The position numbers and the translations under genes were made by a program. 64,000 bases of DNA from Escherichia phage vB_EcoM_KWBSE43-6: sequence record NC_048186.1; one strand, written 5' to 3'. This document shows, piece after piece, positions 30,295-59,983 of the stretch; position 1 is the first letter of the stretch; each line of letters opens with the position of its first letter. Under the pieces are notes generated by a model. It worked only from the letters and a program-made list of their open reading frames with translations. It made no database searches and was not told the DNA's origin.

Positions 30295-31206
30295 ATGTCT
30301 TACATTCTCCATATTGAGTCCGGCCTGAAATTTGATATTGAAGGTAAAACTGCGTCTGACGTCCAGTCCGAAATCAAAGACGCTGGTCTGCTGATCGGTA
30401 ACGTAACCATCCGCCGTATGCTCGACGGCGTCCTGCAAAGTGCCAACGGGTTTGAGCTGATCGATTCCCTGTCTCAAGAAGAGCAGGAAGAAACCCTGGA
30501 GGCTCTCGACCGTGCGAAGGCCGAAGAAGTCCAGCCGACTGACGGCGCTGGCGTGAAAGAAGGCGCTGGCGATACCACTCCGGTCATTGACGCCGAAGAA
30601 ACTGTTAACCAGCCGGAAGCGGAACAAACTGCGAACTCCGAAGAATCTACGGAAACTGCTGAACAGGCTGACCCGCAGGAAGTAGAAGCTGTGGCAAACG
30701 CAGATGAAGTCCGCCGCCGTATCCTGGGTACTAACGTGGCAGAAGCGCTGGCCGAAGGTGGCAATGCCGCCGAAGACGCTTCCCTGGCCGCGAAATCTAA
30801 GCTGACCAACCTGACCCCGGCAGTTGCGCCGGAAGATCGCAAACGTCGCCATAACAAACGCGAAGAAATGGTTGAAGCCGCGCGTTCTTCCAATTTCGGC
30901 GCGATCCTGGCAGCAGTAGAAGCAGGCGTCATTCCGGGTGTTTACCTGAGCTATGTCAATCCGGATATGCGCTGGTTCCAGTTCCCGGTCACCGAGCTGG
31001 CTGATAAAGAAAACCCGCATGCGCGGACTAACACCTACGTCGATCTGGCGCCGATCACTTCCGGCGGCTGGGGTTTCAGTCTGTACGTGAAAGGTAAATC
31101 TTTCACCAAACGCCAGAAAATCAAAGAGACCGATGCGGAATCTCTGGTTAAAGCGATCAATGAATGGTTGCCGGGTGTTCTGGAAGAAGCCAAAAACGCA
31201 GGCTGA
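30295..31206 (+). CDS. Acidic Ala/Glu-rich protein (low-complexity central region)
   Basis: About 303 aa; central EEQEETLEA...AEQTANSEESTETAEQADPQE; start at ATG 30295 (MSYILHIESG). Confidence 0.45.
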   Translation: MSYILHIESGLKFDIEGKTASDVQSEIKDAGLLIGNVTIRRMLDGVLQSANGFELIDSLSQEEQEETLEALDRAKAEEVQPTDGAGVKEGAGDTTPVIDAEETVNQPEAEQTANSEESTETAEQADPQEVEAVANADEVRRRILGTNVAEALAEGGNAAEDASLAAKSKLTNLTPAVAPEDRKRRHNKREEMVEAARSSNFGAILAAVEAGVIPGVYLSYVNPDMRWFQFPVTELADKENPHARTNTYVDLAPITSGGWGFSLYVKGKSFTKRQKIKETDAESLVKAINEWLPGVLEEAKNAG

Positions 31207-31280
31207 TTTTAAATCAGATTCCGTTCAATAGACGAAGGGGCTGCTATAATAGCAGCCTCTTTTGTTTATTGGGGCTTTGT

Positions 31281-31943
31281 ATGTCTTATACGATCAAAGG
31301 TCTGTTGAAAAGACCTGTCCATTTGTTCCATAAACCACCTGCCGTTGTCGGGAATTATCCGGCAAGAGGAGAGCTTTATTATGTCAAAGGCTCCAACGGT
31401 AGTGGCAAGTCTACCGTTCCGTCCTGGATGGCGGAGAATGATCCTCAGGCGTATGTCGTGACCCATAATGGCAAAGTGATGCTGACAGTTTGCCCATCAT
31501 TTAATATCATCTGTGTTGGTAAGTACGACAAATCGAAATCCAAAGGGGTTGACTCTTTGAAAGACACAGAGCAGATGCTATTCGCCGTCTCAATCACGGA
31601 GCAGCCAGAATACATCGGGTATGATGTGATCTTTGAAGGTATTATCCCTGCTACCTTGCTCAATACGTGGATTGAACGTCTAAACCGCCCGACCCGCCGC
31701 CTTGTGGTTCTGTTCTTGGATACCCCCAAGGAAATATGCCTGGCGCGTGTGAGTTCTCGCAATGGGGGTGAAGACTTCAAACACGAACTCGTCCTGGAGA
31801 AATGGAAGCGTGTCAACTCTCACCGAGAGCGGCATAAAGAGTTGTTCCCTAACATTACTGCGGGTATGATGAAGTCTAATGGTCTGACCGTTGATCAGGC
31901 CGTATCTGCGTTTCTCAATCGTGATTTTGGGAGTATTGATTGA
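31281..31943 (+). CDS. P-loop kinase (nucleotide or DNA kinase family)
   Basis: Walker A GSNGSGKST; about 220 aa; immediately upstream of TS-family gene. Confidence 0.5.
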   Translation: MSYTIKGLLKRPVHLFHKPPAVVGNYPARGELYYVKGSNGSGKSTVPSWMAENDPQAYVVTHNGKVMLTVCPSFNIICVGKYDKSKSKGVDSLKDTEQMLFAVSITEQPEYIGYDVIFEGIIPATLLNTWIERLNRPTRRLVVLFLDTPKEICLARVSSRNGGEDFKHELVLEKWKRVNSHRERHKELFPNITAGMMKSNGLTVDQAVSAFLNRDFGSID

Positions 31944-32998
31944 TGGAAATTTTTGCTTTAAACAACAACGACATGCTGAAGAAAGCTGTCCTGGCTATCC
32001 GTGAACATGGGATTGAATCTGATCCCGGTAATGCGGAGATTAATACTGATGGCACCCGGTTTCTTGATGGCGTGACTATAACCGTCTCTGATATCCGTGA
32101 CCGCTGGCTTTCCGTTGAAGGTCGCAATTCTTCTGCGCTGGCTGCTATTGGCGAGACCTTCTGGGTTCTGTCAGGCCGCAATGACATCCGTTTCCTTTCC
32201 CGAGTACTCCCCCGCGCGGCCAACTTCTCTGACGATGGTGTAACCTGGCGCGGCGCGTATGGTACACGCCTGTACAATCACGGGCAGCTGGATAGCGTTA
32301 TCAGCCGTCTGCGCAAGAATCCAAATACCCGCCAGGCTTATCTGACAATCTACGACCCGGCGCTGGACTCTGATGAAGGTTTGGCCGCTCATAATGAAAC
32401 AGGCGAAGCCAAGACCAAGGACATGATTTGTAATTTGGCCCTTTTGTTCTCTATTACAAACGGCTGTCTGAACATGACTGTCATCAACCGTAGCCAGGAT
32501 GTTCTTTGGGGAATGTCTTCGATTAACTTCATTGAATTCTCTATTCTTCAAGAAGTGATCGCTAATGTTTTGGGCGTGAACGTCGGCCAGTACAAGTTGT
32601 TCTCCAACAATCTTCATTATTACAACAATGAAGTAAGCCAAAAACAGCTGAGTAAGATCACGGCGGATACCGTCGTGGTGGAAGAAGGAATGTTCAAAGA
32701 CAAGATTATTTTCAATAATGAAATTGTTGAAGAGCAGAACGGAATCCTGTATATGTTCCGTGACGTGTTGGAAGCGTGTGAAAGTGGATTATCCTGGTCT
32801 TCTGTAGTGGGGATGTTGGAACGCTATGGCGCGGACAGAGGGTTGTTGATGCAAATGGCGTATTGTTTGTGGTGCCGTTTGAACGGTGTTCTTATCAATC
32901 ATATGTATATTGCTGATGATGGGTTACTGAATGCTCTCCGCCATTCTCCTGTTGATCGCAAATATATGAATCCTCGTTCTTTGGGTGGTGACAAATGA
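31940..32998 (+). CDS. Thymidylate synthase-superfamily enzyme (pyrimidine dNMP hydroxymethylase/methylase-like) with about 100-aa C-terminal extension
   Basis: NPNTRQAYLTIYDP resembles the TS phosphate-binding Arg block; CNLALLF...NRSQDVLWG parallels TS PCH...QRSCDVFLG active-site region; too divergent for canonical ThyA. Confidence 0.65.
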   Translation: MMEIFALNNNDMLKKAVLAIREHGIESDPGNAEINTDGTRFLDGVTITVSDIRDRWLSVEGRNSSALAAIGETFWVLSGRNDIRFLSRVLPRAANFSDDGVTWRGAYGTRLYNHGQLDSVISRLRKNPNTRQAYLTIYDPALDSDEGLAAHNETGEAKTKDMICNLALLFSITNGCLNMTVINRSQDVLWGMSSINFIEFSILQEVIANVLGVNVGQYKLFSNNLHYYNNEVSQKQLSKITADTVVVEEGMFKDKIIFNNEIVEEQNGILYMFRDVLEACESGLSWSSVVGMLERYGADRGLLMQMAYCLWCRLNGVLINHMYIADDGLLNALRHSPVDRKYMNPRSLGGDK

Positions 32999-33564
32999 TG
33001 TATCCTAATCTGGAATTCTTCACGGGGCGCAAGCGCTCCGGTAAAGACTTCTGCCTTGAATCTCTGATCAGTTTCTATGAAATTCAGGGTTACAAAGAAA
33101 TCCGTCGTCTTTCATTCTCAGACGAACTGCGCCGGGTGGCCAATTATATCTACCCATGGTTGCCAGTGGACGTAGACGACGCTATCAAGGACGTTCCGTT
33201 CGTTCACCCAGATAACCATCAGGGGTTAACCCCAAGGCAGATCTGGCTCCATCTCGGGAGCGCCTCTGGGCTGCGTTATGTTCAGCCAGACCTATTCCTG
33301 GCGTTTTTTAAACGTTATCAACTTCCTCTCGTTGAGGCTAATCCTCATATCCATTATATCGTCAGTGATTTGCGTACTCCCCAGGAATATGAATGGGCGC
33401 TGAGCACTAAATGTCCTATCACGCGCATTTCAAAGGCAGACCGTGCCGGTATCATAGAAGACGATATAGAGGCGTTCATTGATGAGATGAAGGTCAATTA
33501 TGAATTTGTCAATCCGTTCCAGGGGTGGGCACCATTCGTCAAATTCTATGAGGAAAGGAAATGA
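32995..33564 (+). CDS. Deoxynucleoside monophosphate kinase (T4 gp1-like)
   Basis: FTGRKRSGKDF matches T4 gp1 LSGVKRSGKDT P-loop; 189 aa. Confidence 0.6.
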   Translation: MMYPNLEFFTGRKRSGKDFCLESLISFYEIQGYKEIRRLSFSDELRRVANYIYPWLPVDVDDAIKDVPFVHPDNHQGLTPRQIWLHLGSASGLRYVQPDLFLAFFKRYQLPLVEANPHIHYIVSDLRTPQEYEWALSTKCPITRISKADRAGIIEDDIEAFIDEMKVNYEFVNPFQGWAPFVKFYEERK

Positions 33565-34112
33565 TAACAGCAGATCATATTAAAAGACTGCTCCAACTCC
33601 AAGAGGCCACTAATGTGGCCTACTTTGGGGAAGAGTGGGAAAAGTATTGGACTCACGTTGCCGTAACGAACTCAATTTATCGTGAATGGGCAGAATTCCT
33701 TGATGAAACCACCAAGGATTGGAAGATTTATGGGAATGGTATCCATTTCAATAGAACGGATGCCGTCTATGAATTGGTTGATGTGGTCCATTTTATGCTG
33801 TCTTCCATATTGTCCGGGTATGGTTCTGCGTTCCCGATCGAAATGCAATTTGATCTTTTCTTCAAAGAAGGTCAGGTAATAGATAAATCTGCTAATCTGG
33901 TACATGTCACCGAACGGTTTACAACGTTTATGGGACAACCCGATATCATCCGGTTTGTACGGTTCTTGGTATGCGCCTGTGGTTATCTGGGACTGGACGC
34001 CGAGACATACATGCTGGCACACAAACGCAAAAATGATCGTAATCGGCTGCGCGCTGCAGGCGGCTCTGACTACGACAAATCCAAAGAAATCCCTCTGACC
34101 CTGGAGTTCTAA
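33561..34112 (+). CDS. All-alpha NTP pyrophosphatase (dimeric dUTPase / T4 gp56 dCTPase-like)
   Basis: 183 aa; acidic helical motifs EEWEKYW, EFLDETTKDW, YELVDVVHF characteristic of MazG/dimeric-dUTPase superfamily. Confidence 0.5.
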   Translation: MITADHIKRLLQLQEATNVAYFGEEWEKYWTHVAVTNSIYREWAEFLDETTKDWKIYGNGIHFNRTDAVYELVDVVHFMLSSILSGYGSAFPIEMQFDLFFKEGQVIDKSANLVHVTERFTTFMGQPDIIRFVRFLVCACGYLGLDAETYMLAHKRKNDRNRLRAAGGSDYDKSKEIPLTLEF

Positions 34113-34630
34113 TGTTTACGATTAACATCTCCATTTCGGCCGATAACCTTGAGTCATCGGTTGGCAATTTCATTGAGCACATGAAGCCCTTGGGACATGT
34201 GATACTCAATTGCACGTTAGACGTTGAAGGCGGGGTTGCGGAGATGTTATTCACGACACCCTCTCCAACAGACGCATTCGTCTTGATTGAGCGCTGGGCA
34301 TCGGAGGACATTCCTGTTCCAGCGCCGTTACAGGATATCTATTTCAGCGAGACGATCTACTCACTCCATAGTATGCCCAAGGACGTAAGCCAGGCAGATA
34401 TTGTTCGTCTGATTAATCATAACATGAACTTTGGGTGTATCGTTCGGCGTGATAACTACCGTTTACGCAATCATTTCCTGTATGATAACCAGAACAAAGT
34501 GGATGAAGATCCATTATTATCCATCAAAACCATGCAGGAAGCGATTAATATTTTGTCTAAGAAGGTTCTGGGTGCAGAATTATTAACCACAATTAACAAA
34601 CAAGAGGAAGTAAAATGGCCAGTTCATTAA
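34112..34630 (+). CDS. Hypothetical protein (172 aa) between nucleotide-metabolism cluster and uvsX
   Basis: ORF; occupies the position of beta-glucosyltransferase in T4 but is half the size and shows no recognised GT motif. Confidence 0.4.
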   Translation: MFTINISISADNLESSVGNFIEHMKPLGHVILNCTLDVEGGVAEMLFTTPSPTDAFVLIERWASEDIPVPAPLQDIYFSETIYSLHSMPKDVSQADIVRLINHNMNFGCIVRRDNYRLRNHFLYDNQNKVDEDPLLSIKTMQEAINILSKKVLGAELLTTINKQEEVKWPVH

Positions 34631-35700
34631 TGGATCGCATGTTGAAAGTTGCTAAGAAACATGACGATCAGGCTTCGGTATTGTCTCAGTCAGACGCGCT
34701 CGACCCGAAAATTATCTGCTCGACTGGTATTCCCCTTATTGATATCGCCTGGTCTGGGCGTGTTGATGGCGGTCTGATCTCTGGCATCAAAATGATGGTC
34801 GGTGATTCTCGTACATTCAAAACGATGTTCGGCCTGGTGGACGTCAAAGCGTACATGGATAAATTCCCCGACGCGATCTGTGTATTCGCCGATTCCGAAA
34901 AAGGTGCCAACGCCGATTATTGGACATCCATGGGTATTGACATGGATCGTGTTCTGTATGTCCCGATCGATAACGTTGAACAAACCAAGATCCGTCTGCT
35001 ACAGATTCTTCAGGAAGTGAAGAAAGGCGATAAAGTAATCGTGTTCATCGACTCTATCAGCCAGTTACCTTCCACCAAAGAGGTCGAAGACGCCATCGCT
35101 GGCAAAGATACCCAGGACATGACCCGCGCCCGCGCCCTGAACAGCTTCTGGCGCGTCATTACACCCGAGATTAACAGCAAAGAGCTGGTGTTGGTCTGGA
35201 TCAACTCGTATTATGATGAAATCGGGAACCAATATGCTGAGCCTAACATCAAAGGCGGTAAGCAGGGATTCCTATCATCTAACCTGATTTGGTTCATCAC
35301 CCGTTCACAGGTAAAAGAAGACAAAGACCTGCTGGGGTGGAACTTCAACATCGGCATCATGAAAGGTCGCCATGTTAAAGAGAAAGCCAAACTCCCTGTC
35401 ACGGTTCTGTATGATGGTGGTATTGACCGTTGGAGCGGCATGCTGGAAATTTCTCGGGCGCTTGGCTATGTCGATATGCCGACTTCTGGCTGGTATGTCC
35501 GGACAGCCAAAGGTGGATTTGATCCAGAAAAAGAGAAGAAATACCAGAAGCGTCAAATGGATGATGACTTTTGGTATCCGCTTCTGGAAAACCCGGACTT
35601 CGCCGATGACGTTAAAAAGATGTTCGGCGTTTCCAACGGTACGGTAATGCCTGCGAACATGCTGGAGCAGATGGACCATGTTATCAACACCAGTGAATAA
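34615..35700 (+). CDS. uvsX: UvsX recombinase (RecA-like)
   Basis: 361 aa; blocks IPLIDIAWSGRVDGGL, FKTMFGL, DAICVFADSE, KVIVFIDSI, DMTRARALNS, VKEKAKLPV...YDGGID parallel T4 UvsX. Confidence 0.85.
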   Translation: MASSLMDRMLKVAKKHDDQASVLSQSDALDPKIICSTGIPLIDIAWSGRVDGGLISGIKMMVGDSRTFKTMFGLVDVKAYMDKFPDAICVFADSEKGANADYWTSMGIDMDRVLYVPIDNVEQTKIRLLQILQEVKKGDKVIVFIDSISQLPSTKEVEDAIAGKDTQDMTRARALNSFWRVITPEINSKELVLVWINSYYDEIGNQYAEPNIKGGKQGFLSSNLIWFITRSQVKEDKDLLGWNFNIGIMKGRHVKEKAKLPVTVLYDGGIDRWSGMLEISRALGYVDMPTSGWYVRTAKGGFDPEKEKKYQKRQMDDDFWYPLLENPDFADDVKKMFGVSNGTVMPANMLEQMDHVINTSE

Positions 35701-49355: not shown

Positions 49356-49868
49356 TTATTTGTCTGGGTTTACGCAAAGGGGAGTTGTAGTCAGCTCGCC
49401 TTTATCATCAAAACTGTATTTCAGAACCGCATATTGGTCAACCATGCGATAGACTTCAATACCGGCATTCATCATTTCCACGATGCCCGTCGTGATCCTG
49501 TACGGTTCACAGTAGATCACTTTATCGATCTTGCCGCTGGCAATAATACGTTTGGTGCACTCAGGGCAAGGACTGTGAGTGACGAACATAACCAGACCAC
49601 ACCAATCTGCCGCATGTTGAGGTAAACGGTTCAGAGCATTTTCTTCGGCGTGAATAACACCGTCAGATACCAGCTGGCCGTCTACTTCTATTTCGCACAC
49701 ATTAGGAGCGCCGGGCGCAGTGCCATTCCAGCCAATAGCCAACGGCTGATCAACCCGAGGATCTACGATAACACAACCAACCTGGAGACGGCGGGCATAA
49801 CTGGTTTTGCCATATGCCTGGGCTGCTCTCATATGGGCAAACATCATGCGTGGCTTAATCATGGACAT
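49356..49868 (-). CDS. cd: dCMP deaminase (cytidine/deoxycytidylate deaminase family)
   Basis: Zinc-binding motifs HAEENAL and PCPEC at correct spacing; 170 aa. Confidence 0.8.
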   Translation of the reverse strand: MSMIKPRMMFAHMRAAQAYGKTSYARRLQVGCVIVDPRVDQPLAIGWNGTAPGAPNVCEIEVDGQLVSDGVIHAEENALNRLPQHAADWCGLVMFVTHSPCPECTKRIIASGKIDKVIYCEPYRITTGIVEMMNAGIEVYRMVDQYAVLKYSFDDKGELTTTPLCVNPDK

Positions 49869-51585: not shown

Positions 51586-52036
51586 ATTCTTTTCCTCTGA
51601 GATCATTATAGAAATTGATTAACATATTGTCAGTCCATCCTGACCAGTCGAATACATCAAAATCAGCCACACCTTGGTACATATTGACGATAGCAGGCGA
51701 AAATATGACATCAACCTGATTTTTATCGTTGTCATTCACCTGAACTTTGATCCAGAACAAAGATCGGTCTTCCAGAATATGTGCCAATTTAGGATAACGA
51801 GAGGATATTTCCAATGCCCACACATCTAATATAGAACGAAAATCATCTTCCATTTTATAAATGAATGCCGTGGAAATCGGATGGCCAAGATATGGACTCC
51901 AGGATTTATATTGTGTTACTTCCTGGATGCTGGACACCAATGGTATCACCAATCCCCGCTGATATTGTGCTGACAAAGAAGGGATAGAATTAAGATATGA
52001 CAATATCTCTTCACGCTGAATCTGTGTTAATTTCAT
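51575..52036 (-). CDS. Hypothetical protein
   Basis: 153 aa ORF, overlapping stop/start with the QueC-like gene. Confidence 0.4.
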
Positions 52037-52698
52037 TTTAGTCCCACCTCATAACGATGACGAGTACAGGCCATACAATCGCAGTTCTTTTTCAGAACCG
52101 GATATTCACACCAGGTCATCATCCCGTAAAGAGGACGAAGGGCTTCATAAAACCAGGCTTTCTTCAACCCGATCATGGGGAACAACAATTCAGCCGGGCG
52201 ATTTTGTGGATCAGCCAACATAGCATACCCTTCCATGATCTTATTGAAGGAACGGATATACTGCAGGGCATCATCACCGTTCACATATGCCATGACATAC
52301 GTCTCAGGATAGATAGATGCAAGCTGAGTGCCAAGCAACCATATTGGGGCTTGGGCCAATGCTGAACGGAAAGGGCCAGCTGCTTCTACCTTTAATATAG
52401 GGATTTCATCATTGTCCCAATGTTGTGTTAATTCTGGACGATATTTTTCTGCCCATTGTCTGATCTTTTTCCTAGACCACATTTCACGCCGGGACTTGAA
52501 CGAGTTGTTCTCCAGGTCGCAGTAGATCGTCCGGACATAATATCCGTGAGAAAGCAACCAGAACAGCATGTATGTACTGTCAACACCGCCAGACCAGAAC
52601 AAAGTCACACTCTTATCATTGAAATGCATGGGTAACTTTTGTCCTTCCAACACGTCGCGTACAAATTCTCTGTCATTGAATTCTACATTGATTTCCAT
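52033..52698 (-). CDS. PP-loop ATP pyrophosphatase, QueC-like (7-cyano-7-deazaguanine synthase family)
   Basis: SGGVDST PP-loop at residues 36-42; C-terminal TWCEY-x8-CDCMAC-x2-R resembling the QueC zinc-binding Cys cluster; 221 aa. Confidence 0.55.
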   Translation of the reverse strand: MEINVEFNDREFVRDVLEGQKLPMHFNDKSVTLFWSGGVDSTYMLFWLLSHGYYVRTIYCDLENNSFKSRREMWSRKKIRQWAEKYRPELTQHWDNDEIPILKVEAAGPFRSALAQAPIWLLGTQLASIYPETYVMAYVNGDDALQYIRSFNKIMEGYAMLADPQNRPAELLFPMIGLKKAWFYEALRPLYGMMTWCEYPVLKKNCDCMACTRHRYEVGLK

Positions 52699-59356: not shown

Positions 59357-59983
59357 TTATAGACCAAATTTGCCCCGCCACTTTTCGACTTTGTGCTCAA
59401 ATGCGTGCTCAACTTTTATTCTAATCGATGACGGTTCTGCACAATGATAATACGTTCTTCCTTCATCAGTCCCATATTGAGGGGCGCAACCGTATGACAA
59501 TGCCAATTGAGCTGTGTATCTGATTAAAGTGCTCACCAGGAAGTTTAAATTATCGGTAGATCTTTGTGGCTGGTTTAGCAATCTGGTGATACGCCCTTTC
59601 ATATGATGGATCATAGCTAAATTCTTTTCTGGCCCTGTGGTGGTATCACAGAAAAGGTGGTCTTCAAGGGAATATTGGCGGAAATCAGAATATCCTTGCG
59701 ACAACGCCATTTGGGTTATAATTGAATCAATAATTTCATCTTTCGTCATATTACCATGGATTTGTGCATCTTTGTAATCGCAGACATACAAAAGATCAAC
59801 TGCTGAGATAATCACGTCAGCTATTTCTCCATTGAGTGGCTCTGAAGCTGCGATGCCGTGGTAAACATCGGAAAGTTCACATACTTCTTCCACCAGTTTA
59901 CAGAAGACGAAAAATGGAGAACGATCTGGATTGACCACAGTACATTCATATGACGTATTGACAATATTACGCAGAAATTTCAT
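59357..59983 (-). CDS. MazG-like nucleotide pyrophosphohydrolase domain protein
   Basis: EEVCEL ... GEIADVIISAVDLLY resembling the MazG EExxE...E..D motif; 208 aa. Confidence 0.45.
   Translation of the reverse strand: MKFLRNIVNTSYECTVVNPDRSPFFVFCKLVEEVCELSDVYHGIAASEPLNGEIADVIISAVDLLYVCDYKDAQIHGNMTKDEIIDSIITQMALSQGYSDFRQYSLEDHLFCDTTTGPEKNLAMIHHMKGRITRLLNQPQRSTDNLNFLVSTLIRYTAQLALSYGCAPQYGTDEGRTYYHCAEPSSIRIKVEHAFEHKVEKWRGKFGL

Follow-up and report, generated by a model that had tools for sequence, protein, structure and literature searches.

[quoted passage not shown] The ORF listing with translations revealed five co-oriented genes on the + strand (31281-34630), located directly 5' of uvsX and with overlaps of 1-4 nt between cluster neighbours, in agreement with what an earlier sequence-only reading had described. 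The cluster region shows 98% nucleotide identity to PQ066595.1. Because all five products gave highly significant family matches, the ORFs are judged from their sequences to be genuine genes rather than ORFs arising by chance. The features are as follows:

31234..31262, + strand, terminator-like hairpin (13 bp stem, 3-nt loop, T-rich tail; consensus scan only)
31281..31943 (longer ORF from 31164), + strand, putative 5-hydroxymethyl-dU DNA kinase (5-HMUDK), 220 aa; PF18748, ortholog of ViI gp67 (Vi01_061c)
31940..32998, + strand, predicted dUMP hydroxymethylase-type TS-family enzyme; PF00303, phrog_3676, ortholog of ViI Vi01_060c
32995..33564, + strand, deoxynucleoside monophosphate kinase, 189 aa; phrog_139, ortholog of ViI Vi01_059c
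33561..34112, + strand, all-alpha dimeric-dUTPase/gp56-type NTP pyrophosphohydrolase, 183 aa; PF08761, phrog_173
34112..34630, + strand, phage ACT-like protein, 172 aa, no assigned role; PF24021 (E 3e-81), phrog_3839 "unknown function"
34615..35700, + strand, UvsX recombinase; PF00154 and PF21134, phrog_97 (E 9e-95)
49356..49868, - strand, dCMP deaminase; PF00383 (E 1.2e-16), 69% identity to ViI Vi01_030

The hairpin at 31234-31262 is the strongest terminator-like site that the consensus scan detected between 29800 and 37600. It sits between the upstream gene, whose stop is at 31206, and the kinase gene, and this putative terminator would mark the upstream edge of the cluster. On the other side, uvsX overlaps the 172-aa ACT-like gene by 16 nt; UvsX is the downstream neighbour and has no part in the modification chemistry. 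The position had been likened to that of gene 42 and beta-gt in T4, and the analogy holds, the T4 order being 42, beta-gt, segA, uvsX, 40 and 41.

The 220-aa product of the first gene matched PF18748 (HMUDK_HMUD1) over the full length of the profile (1-196/196; E 1.8e-104; 347.9 bits against a cut-off of 27) and contains a Walker A motif (G37-SNGSG-K43-S44). It shares 79% identity over 220/220 residues with gp67 of Salmonella phage ViI, which occupies the equivalent genomic slot and has been shown in vitro to phosphorylate 5-hmdU within DNA (PMC8989533). These matches support the identification of the upstream P-loop protein as a putative 5-hmdU DNA kinase, as the sequence-only reading had suspected. 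The start at 31281 is preferable to the longer ORF from 31164, since it coincides with the start of ViI gp67 and since the hairpin would otherwise fall inside the gene.

The TS-family protein encoded by the second gene has 352 aa from the TTG at 31940 or 351 aa from the ATG at 31943, and its translation contains both strings quoted earlier for the active-site region (CNLALLF and NRSQDVLWGMSSINF). The PF00303 match (E 2.3e-15) covers only residues 65-237, the rest being a C-terminal region of about 110 aa that is not ThyA-like; the domain plan comprises a TS core to about residue 240 and a C-terminal helical domain spanning about 266-348. The key residues are E72, W75, Y107, R131, C164, N165, R184, S185, D187, N196, H226 and Y228, and alignment with E. 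coli ThyA revealed conservation of C164 (catalytic), R131, R184, S185, D187, H226, Y228, E72 and Y107. Across 46 homologs, conservation of N196 and N165 is 90% or higher. The protein shares 78% identity with ViI Vi01_060c and belongs to phrog_3676 (E 2e-176), the same PHROG as PhiW-14 gp230, a "deoxyuridylate hydroxymethyltransferase". The AF2 model (pLDDT 93.9) recovered the TS and MilA folds, and its best PDB match was MilA over 357 columns (TM 0.76/0.84), including the C-terminal helical domain. The extra domain of about 100 aa noticed in the sequence-only reading is present but not unusual within the clade; the enzymes of PhiW-14, PaMx11 and SPO1-type phages have it too, as does MilA.

The third and fourth genes had been read as a gp1-type kinase and a gp56-type pyrophosphatase, and both products fall in the PHROG families of these T4 proteins. 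The 189-aa kinase matched phrog_139 (E 1.1e-43), which also holds T4 gp1 (E 1.8e-65) and PhiW-14 gp231, and its P-loop variant (G-RKRSGKD) follows the G-x-KRSGKD form common to T4 gp1. Identity is 87% to ViI Vi01_059c and 30% to PhiW-14 gp231 (E 4e-18), while pairwise BLASTP with T4 gp1 aligned just 29 residues (E 4e-4). The Pfam DNMK model (PF21448), which was built on gp1 and gives 358 bits with gp1 itself, showed no match in the 189-aa kinase at E <= 0.1. The kinase is predicted to convert 5-hmdUMP to 5-hmdUDP. The 183-aa protein matched dUTPase_2 (PF08761) with 32.9 bits against a cut-off of 22.9, over profile positions 2-159/162, as well as phrog_173 (E 8e-38), and T4 gp56 is also a member of both families. 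It shares 66% identity with ViI Vi01_058c and shows a weak match to the Campylobacter dUTPase 1w2y. Its predicted role is to remove dUTP, and possibly dTTP, from the nucleotide pool.

The 172-aa ACT-like protein is the only cluster element that has no assigned role. The proposal that it acts as a downstream transferase is not supported: an aGPT-Pplase or amino-acid:DNA transferase identity was rejected on its sole family match, PF24021, and on a predicted fold that is ACT/ferredoxin-like and not helix-hairpin-helix glycosylase-like, and gp247 and gp160 have their own orthologs of about 400 aa, encoded outside the window, that of gp247 being found in the close relative. Its AF2 model consists of a beta-alpha-beta-beta-alpha-beta N-terminal domain (pLDDT ~88) followed by a low-confidence C-terminus plus helices, and the fold search with this model returned no significant match, the best ones being weak and ACT/ferredoxin-like. 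Among 1.84 billion proteins, the family accounts for 17 representative clusters, and it is confined to this lineage, always in the slot between the dUTPase_2 gene and uvsX, a slot in which the gene was also found in three distant contigs. Identity to the ViI counterpart is 41%, so that it is far more diverged than the cluster enzymes. The last codons of the gene (QEEVKWPVH*) hold the Shine-Dalgarno sequence of uvsX (GAGGA, 34603-34607) and its start ATG (34615). A lineage-specific accessory, translationally coupled to uvsX, is the best explanation. That the protein serves thymidine hypermodification as a dedicated accessory that senses small molecules, and is not a passenger gene, seems unlikely; if true, it might tune the supply of 5-hmdUTP or the modified-T fraction according to serine or nucleotide levels, or else have a role in the as yet unexplained step that turns the remaining 5-hmdU into thymidine.

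The suggestion of a pyrimidine-modification module is borne out by the family matches and by gene-for-gene synteny with ViI, and the cluster very probably covers the half of the ViI-type thymidine hypermodification pathway of Ackermannviridae that precedes replication, together with the first enzyme to act after it. In this scheme, the TS-family enzyme would transfer a hydroxymethyl group from methylene-tetrahydrofolate onto dUMP to give 5-hmdUMP, with the dCMP deaminase, in the same window but 15 kb off, as the probable supplier of dUMP, a role stated for hmU phages (PMC8989533). By analogy with SPO1, PhiW-14 and T4, the gp1-family kinase would produce 5-hmdUDP and host NDP kinase 5-hmdUTP. 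The gp56/dimeric-dUTPase-family pyrophosphatase would remove competing dUTP and perhaps dTTP. The phage polymerase would then put 5-hmdU into DNA, where 5-HMUDK would convert it to 5-PmdU, for which the 79%-identical ViI gp67 provides the in vitro precedent. Enzymes encoded outside the window would act next, a gp247 ortholog adding serine and a gp226 ortholog decarboxylating, and the expected end product is 5-(2-aminoethoxy)methyl-dU on part of the thymidines.

Within the 64-kb window, tblastn gave no match for the transferase (gp247 in ViI), the decarboxylase (gp226), the second kinase (gp243) or the second aGPT-Pplase (gp160; aGPT-Pplase1). PQ066595.1 encodes orthologs of ViI gp160, gp226, gp243 and gp247 (69, 88, 71 and 85% identity, respectively), and we infer from this close relative that the complete phage genome would carry all four. 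Five ViI proteins reconstitute 5-NeOmdU (PMC5889632, PMC8989533), and the modification genes are conserved across Ackermannviridae (PMC11721090). In addition, 5-NeOmdU was reported by HPLC-MS/MS in Taipeivirus phiHS2 at about 16% of dT, with a nucleoside ion at m/z 302.135 (bioRxiv 10.64898/2026.05.19.726188). According to the sequence-only reading, sequence alone does not tell which base is modified; the comparative and published evidence identifies it as thymidine, most likely in the form of 5-NeOmdU. Modification of T is partial, at about 16-40%.

The same front end might lead to another end product, or halt at 5-hmdU or 5-PmdU, which would require that the downstream transferase or tailoring genes differ or be missing in the phage genome. 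Their absence from the window is consistent with this, as is the way in which hypermodifying phages combine one and the same kinase and hydroxymethylase with different sets of tailoring enzymes (PMC8989533). However, the relative with 98% identity over the cluster has the orthologs of the ViI serine transferase and decarboxylase, and a member of the same genus, phiHS2, carries the 5-NeOmdU detected by MS, which makes such an outcome improbable.

An ordinary, dTMP-making thymidylate synthase within a cluster of generic nucleotide metabolism would also account for the PF00303 match and for the "thymidylate synthase" labels in PHROGs and most GenBank records, and both the catalytic Cys and a dUMP-type Asn are equally expected in ThyA. 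However, in line with the earlier view that the protein is not a canonical ThyA, all seven NCBIfam ThyA equivalog models scored far below their cut-offs (108-427 bits), the best giving 59.7 bits against 327. From about residue 237 onwards, the MilA-like helical domain takes the place of the ThyA C-terminal region, and the IWDEW segment of E. coli ThyA aligns to PRA-ANFSDDG, which lacks Trp. In tblastn, the nearest relatives outside its own family were those of PhiW-14 (43%), SPO1-like phages (36%) and PaMx11 (35%), all enzymes of known hmU or hypermodifying phages, as compared to about 24% for the T-even td, and the only known substrate of the adjoining kinase is 5-hmdU in DNA. With this evidence, an ordinary ThyA is very improbable, and the 352-aa protein is assigned by sequence to the dUMP-hydroxymethylase-type members of the TS family, with 5-hmdUMP, formed by hydration of the exocyclic methylene without hydride transfer, as the predicted product; in the papers cited here the Ackermannviridae homolog is named a "predicted" dUMP hydroxymethyltransferase. 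The choice of nucleotide is indicated by N196, which aligns with Asn177 of ThyA and points to dUMP, hence to 5-hmdUMP, a possibility the sequence-only reading had raised from an Asn near this discriminator. A T4 gp42-like dCMP hydroxymethylase modifying cytosine, which the place upstream of uvsX (as for T4 gene 42) and the cytosine specificity of the best solved-structure relative, MilA, would suggest, can practically be dismissed, since gp42 has Asp in the column of N196 and phrog_160 as its best PHROG instead of phrog_3676, the Asp of MilA lies one position away across a one-residue gap, the phage encodes a deaminase that probably feeds dUMP, and in ViI and Taipeivirus it is thymidine that is modified.

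The ViI-type pathway and its genes are already known (2018-2021; Lee et al., 2018, PMC5889632; Lee et al., 2021, PMC8989533) and one Taipeivirus has been shown by LC-MS to contain 5-NeOmdU, so that the cluster adds little new knowledge. Its practical value lies in annotation. In public records, including RefSeq ViI and the closest relative, the 5-hmdU DNA kinase is labelled "terminase small subunit" and the hydroxymethylase "thymidylate synthase", and these labels hide the fact that the Klebsiella phages of this group, which are therapy candidates, probably have restriction-resistant, hypermodified DNA.

Comparison with known systems places the cluster closest to phage ViI, which has the same gene order (5-HMUDK (gp67), TS homolog, dnk, dUTPase_2, ACT-like, uvsX, x, gp41 helicase). 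The amino acid identities of Vi01_061c-056c to the cluster products and UvsX are, respectively, 79, 78, 87, 66, 41 and 69%, and the remaining ViI pathway genes are present in the close relative PQ066595.1. ViI is a Kuttervirus, whereas the phage analysed here is a Taipeivirus with a Klebsiella host, and modified T amounts to about 40% in ViI as compared to about 16% in phiHS2, so the fraction here may differ. Delftia phage PhiW-14 (gp230-gp234: dUMP hydroxymethyltransferase, dNMP kinase, dUTP diphosphatase, small ORF, UvsX) shares the order hydroxymethylase, dNMP kinase, dUTPase_2, X, UvsX and PHROGs 3676, 139 and 173, and its hydroxymethylase is also C-terminally extended (357 aa). It differs in that its 5-HMUDK (gp37) is not adjacent to the module, an unrelated 76-aa ORF takes the place of the ACT-like gene ahead of UvsX, and the final modification is alpha-putrescinylthymine. 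Genes 42, 1 and 56 of T4 follow the same logic, with a canonical pyrimidine exchanged ahead of replication through a hydroxymethylase of the TS family, a dNMP kinase and an all-alpha NTP pyrophosphatase; T4 also shares the PHROG families of gp1 and gp56 and a TS-family gene upstream of uvsX-40-41. However, the T4 genes are dispersed, the target base differs (Asn196 here, Asp in gp42), the 189-aa kinase fails to reach the Pfam DNMK model of gp1, and T4 DNA is glucosylated whereas phosphorylation and amino acid transfer would apply here. Finally, the best sequence match of the 352-aa protein is MilA (E 4e-17; PDB 5jnh, 5b6d), the CMP 5-hydroxymethylase of mildiomycin biosynthesis, a bacterial secondary-metabolism enzyme that differs in acting on CMP, in having Asp near the discriminator position and in an identity of just about 20%.

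The genes preceding uvsX form a real operon-like block, since all five products matched their protein families strongly. The plus-strand open reading frames described in the sequence-only reading were all located, neighbouring cluster genes sharing 1-4 nt and the last gene overlapping uvsX by 16 nt:

31234-31262, strong terminator-like hairpin with a 13-bp stem, a loop inside CTATAATAG and a T-rich tail
31281-31943, plus strand, kinase gene (5-hmdU DNA kinase, 5-HMUDK), 220 aa; a longer open reading frame opens at 31164
31940/31943-32998, plus strand, thymidylate synthase (TS)-family gene, 352 aa
32995-33564, plus strand, dNMP kinase gene, 189 aa
33561-34112, plus strand, pyrophosphatase gene, 183 aa
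34112-34630, plus strand, ACT-like gene, 172 aa
34615-35700, uvsX, directly after the ACT-like gene
49356-49868, minus strand, dCMP deaminase gene

The hairpin falls between the stop codon of the upstream gene (31206) and the kinase ATG at 31281, and the kinase ortholog of Salmonella phage ViI begins at the equivalent ATG. The start at 31281, as originally read, was therefore favoured, and the start at 31164, annotated in the closest GenBank relative, was dropped. No promoter is claimed, because a sigma-70 scan found sites no more numerous than in shuffled sequence.

Megablast of the cluster region matched 255 phage records, the best being Klebsiella phage phi1_175010 (PQ066595.1; Ackermannviridae, genus Taipeivirus), with 98.0% identity at 100% query coverage. 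The same gene order was found in ViI (NC_015296), namely Vi01_061c (orf00067, "gp67"), thyA-like 060c, dnk 059c, dUTPase 058c and 057c, continuing with uvsX 056c, 055c and the gp41 helicase 054c. In tblastn with the ViI proteins as queries, identity to the window was 79% for gp67, 78% for the TS homolog (060c), 87% for dnk (059c), 66% for the dUTPase (058c), 41% for 057c and 69% for UvsX (056c). Between about 37000 and 60000 of the window, the coordinates of genes shared with PQ066595.1 were shifted by ~1.3-1.6 kb (the dCMP deaminase, for example, is at 49359 where 50933 would be expected from PQ066595.1), implying that some small open reading frames of that genome are missing from the window or shorter there.

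Analyses of the 352-aa protein, in which both CNLALLF and NRSQDVLWGMSSINF were found as quoted, pointed to a divergent TS-family enzyme of the dUMP hydroxymethylase type. It is not a canonical ThyA, as first proposed: NCBIfam ThyA equivalog models scored at most 60 bits, far below their cut-offs of 108-427. In an alignment with E. coli ThyA, T4 gp42, PhiW-14 gp230, PaMx11 gp51 and one SPO1-like enzyme, the nucleophile C164 was conserved together with E72, W75, Y107, R131, R184, S185, D187, H226 and Y228. At the dUMP/dCMP discriminator, N196 occupies the ThyA N177 column, where T4 gp42 has Asp; this placement agrees with HMMER alignments to solved TS and to the CMP hydroxymethylase MilA. Across 46 homologs C164 was invariant, while N165 and N196 were at least 90% conserved. 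Opposite the ThyA IWDEW segment, which we take to be the region shielding the exocyclic-methylene intermediate, the clade of this protein aligned with PRA-ANFSDDG, without Trp. The closest relatives outside Ackermannviridae came from phages known for hmU or hypermodification, namely Ralstonia RP13 (45% identity), PhiW-14 (gp230, "deoxyuridylate hydroxymethyltransferase", 43%), the SPO1-like phage (36%) and PaMx11 (35%), with T-even td at ~24%; the protein also shares phrog_3676 with PhiW-14 gp230, T4 gp42 being in phrog_160.

The extra C-terminal domain noticed earlier is real, as the PF00303 match was confined to residues 65-237 and the AlphaFold2 model built with the 46 homologs (pLDDT 93.9) showed a TS core followed by a helical domain at ~266-348. 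Foldseek against PDB placed MilA at the top (TM 0.76/0.84), with 357 aligned columns including the C-terminal domain, and canonical TS structures aligned over ~240-290 columns only (TMq ~0.5-0.56); a sequence search of PDB chains likewise gave meaningful matches to MilA and TS. Because the PhiW-14, PaMx11 and SPO1-like enzymes are similarly long (348-383 aa), this domain is common to the hydroxymethylase branch and is no novelty.

The P-loop protein had been guessed to act as a 5-hmdU kinase at the DNA level, and this was borne out by its match to PF18748 (HMUDK_HMUD1; E 1.8e-104, whole model covered), along with its identity to ViI gp67. Its Walker A motif is G37-SNGSG-K43-S44, and models of standard thymidylate, adenylate and guanylate kinases, like PDB chains searched by sequence, matched only at noise level. 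The phrog_800 label for this kinase, "terminase small subunit", has spread into many GenBank/RefSeq records, including that of ViI (YP_004327432.1). It is a mis-annotation; the genuine small terminase of PQ066595.1 is another gene, at record positions 1-687. In PQ066595.1, where the entries concerned are CDS0118 and CDS0037, the same label also sits on the gp160 (aGPT-Pplase1) ortholog. This widespread mis-annotation is one of the two remaining points of interest in the cluster.

Direct BLASTP of the 189-aa and 183-aa proteins to T4 gp1 and gp56 gave marginal, motif-level matches only, so PHROG and Pfam had to be used for tests at the family level; these upheld the proposed gp1-type kinase and gp56-type pyrophosphatase. 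The 189-aa protein shares phrog_139 with T4 gp1 and PhiW-14 gp231 (30% identity to the latter, E 4e-18); it fell short of the Pfam DNMK model, which derives from T4 gp1, and gave only noise against PDB chains. The 183-aa protein scored above the Pfam dUTPase_2 cut-off, shares both this family and phrog_173 with T4 gp56, and matched the PDB chain 1w2y weakly. Following the scheme for hmU phages (PMC8989533), the former was assigned a probable role in 5-hmdUMP phosphorylation and the latter in dUTP/dTTP clearance.

In ViI, gp67, gp160, gp226, gp243 and gp247 jointly rebuild 5-(2-aminoethoxy)methyl-dU (5-NeOmdU) on 5-hmdU DNA (PMC5889632), gp67 and gp243 being 5-hmdU DNA kinases, gp247 a serine:DNA transferase and gp226 a PLP-dependent decarboxylase (PMC8989533). 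By analogy, dUMP would be supplied by the dCMP deaminase and converted to 5-hmdUMP by the hydroxymethylase; the dNMP kinase and the host NDP kinase would raise this to 5-hmdUTP, with the pyrophosphatase cutting back dNTPs that compete with it, and replication would incorporate 5-hmdU. The 5-HMUDK would then phosphorylate 5-hmdU in DNA, as shown for its ViI ortholog gp67, whose reported product is the 5-PmdU nucleotide, after which orthologs of gp247 and gp226, both outside the window, would add serine and decarboxylate it to yield 5-NeOmdU, as shown for ViI. Homologs of gp160, gp226, gp243 and gp247 were not found by tblastn in the 64-kb window; PQ066595.1 carries their orthologs elsewhere in its genome (69, 88, 71 and 85% identity, respectively). 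According to the review literature, conservation of the modification genes extends across Ackermannviridae (PMC11721090), and Taipeivirus phiHS2 has 5-NeOmdU, detected at m/z 302.135, on ~16% of dT by HPLC-MS/MS (bioRxiv 10.64898/2026.05.19.726188). How such phages turn the rest of their 5-hmdU into thymidine has been described as unknown (PMC5889632).

The 172-aa protein is the other point of interest. Its suggested role as a downstream transferase found no support: it matched PF24021 ("Phage ACT-like domain", E 3e-81) and a PHROG without a function label. The AlphaFold2 model showed a beta-alpha-beta-beta-alpha-beta N-terminal domain (pLDDT ~88) and a low-confidence helical C-terminus; the fold search gave no hit with E <= 0.001 and, among compact matches, ranked generic ACT or ferredoxin-like domains best, so no function was drawn. 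Sequence comparison with PDB chains gave only noise, and a literature search on PF24021/ACT_phage found nothing. The family is tiny: a word-indexed search yielded 16 proteins, and a profile run exhaustively against 1.84 billion representatives yielded 17 clusters. On metagenomic phage contigs, three of its remotest members hold this position too, in the order HMUDK-TS-(dNMP kinase)-dUTPase_2-ACT-UvsX-x-DnaB. W169 and H172 were invariant even in members 19-25% identical, and EEVKW was conserved. The C-terminus QEEVKWPVH with its stop codon (34603-34630) shares bases with the uvsX Shine-Dalgarno GAGGA (34603-34607) and ATG (34615), so this conservation is at least partly dual coding, and a reading of EEVKWPVH as a protein-docking motif was considered and set aside.

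Outside the cluster, in this phage predicted to modify T rather than G, a 221-aa protein (52033-52698, minus strand) gave a borderline Pfam match to QueC, a PP-loop ATPase (22 bits, equal to the cut-off), and the counterpart region of ViI has an annotated "QueC-like" gene, Vi01_023. The product of 59357-59983 (minus strand) was 55% identical to the ViI "MazG-like pyrophosphatase" Vi01_011 and matched nothing in Pfam at E <= 0.01. As PQ066595.1 has a third MazG-like gene adjoining its gp160 ortholog, the phage has up to three NTP pyrophosphatase-like genes.

The sequence-only reading was thus essentially correct on the modification cluster, including the DNA-level kinase, and failed only on the transferase. 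The cluster is real, and it belongs to an already described system in a window close to deposited genomes. In T4 (42-uvsX-41), PhiW-14 (gp230-gp234) and Ackermannviridae alike, a TS-family hydroxymethylase gene precedes those for UvsX and the replicative helicase; PhiW-14 differs in that the slot of the ACT-like gene holds an unrelated 76-aa open reading frame, whose product showed no similarity to the ACT-like protein. The recurrence of this arrangement suggests that the placement of base-replacement enzymes in T4-like replication modules is old and conserved.
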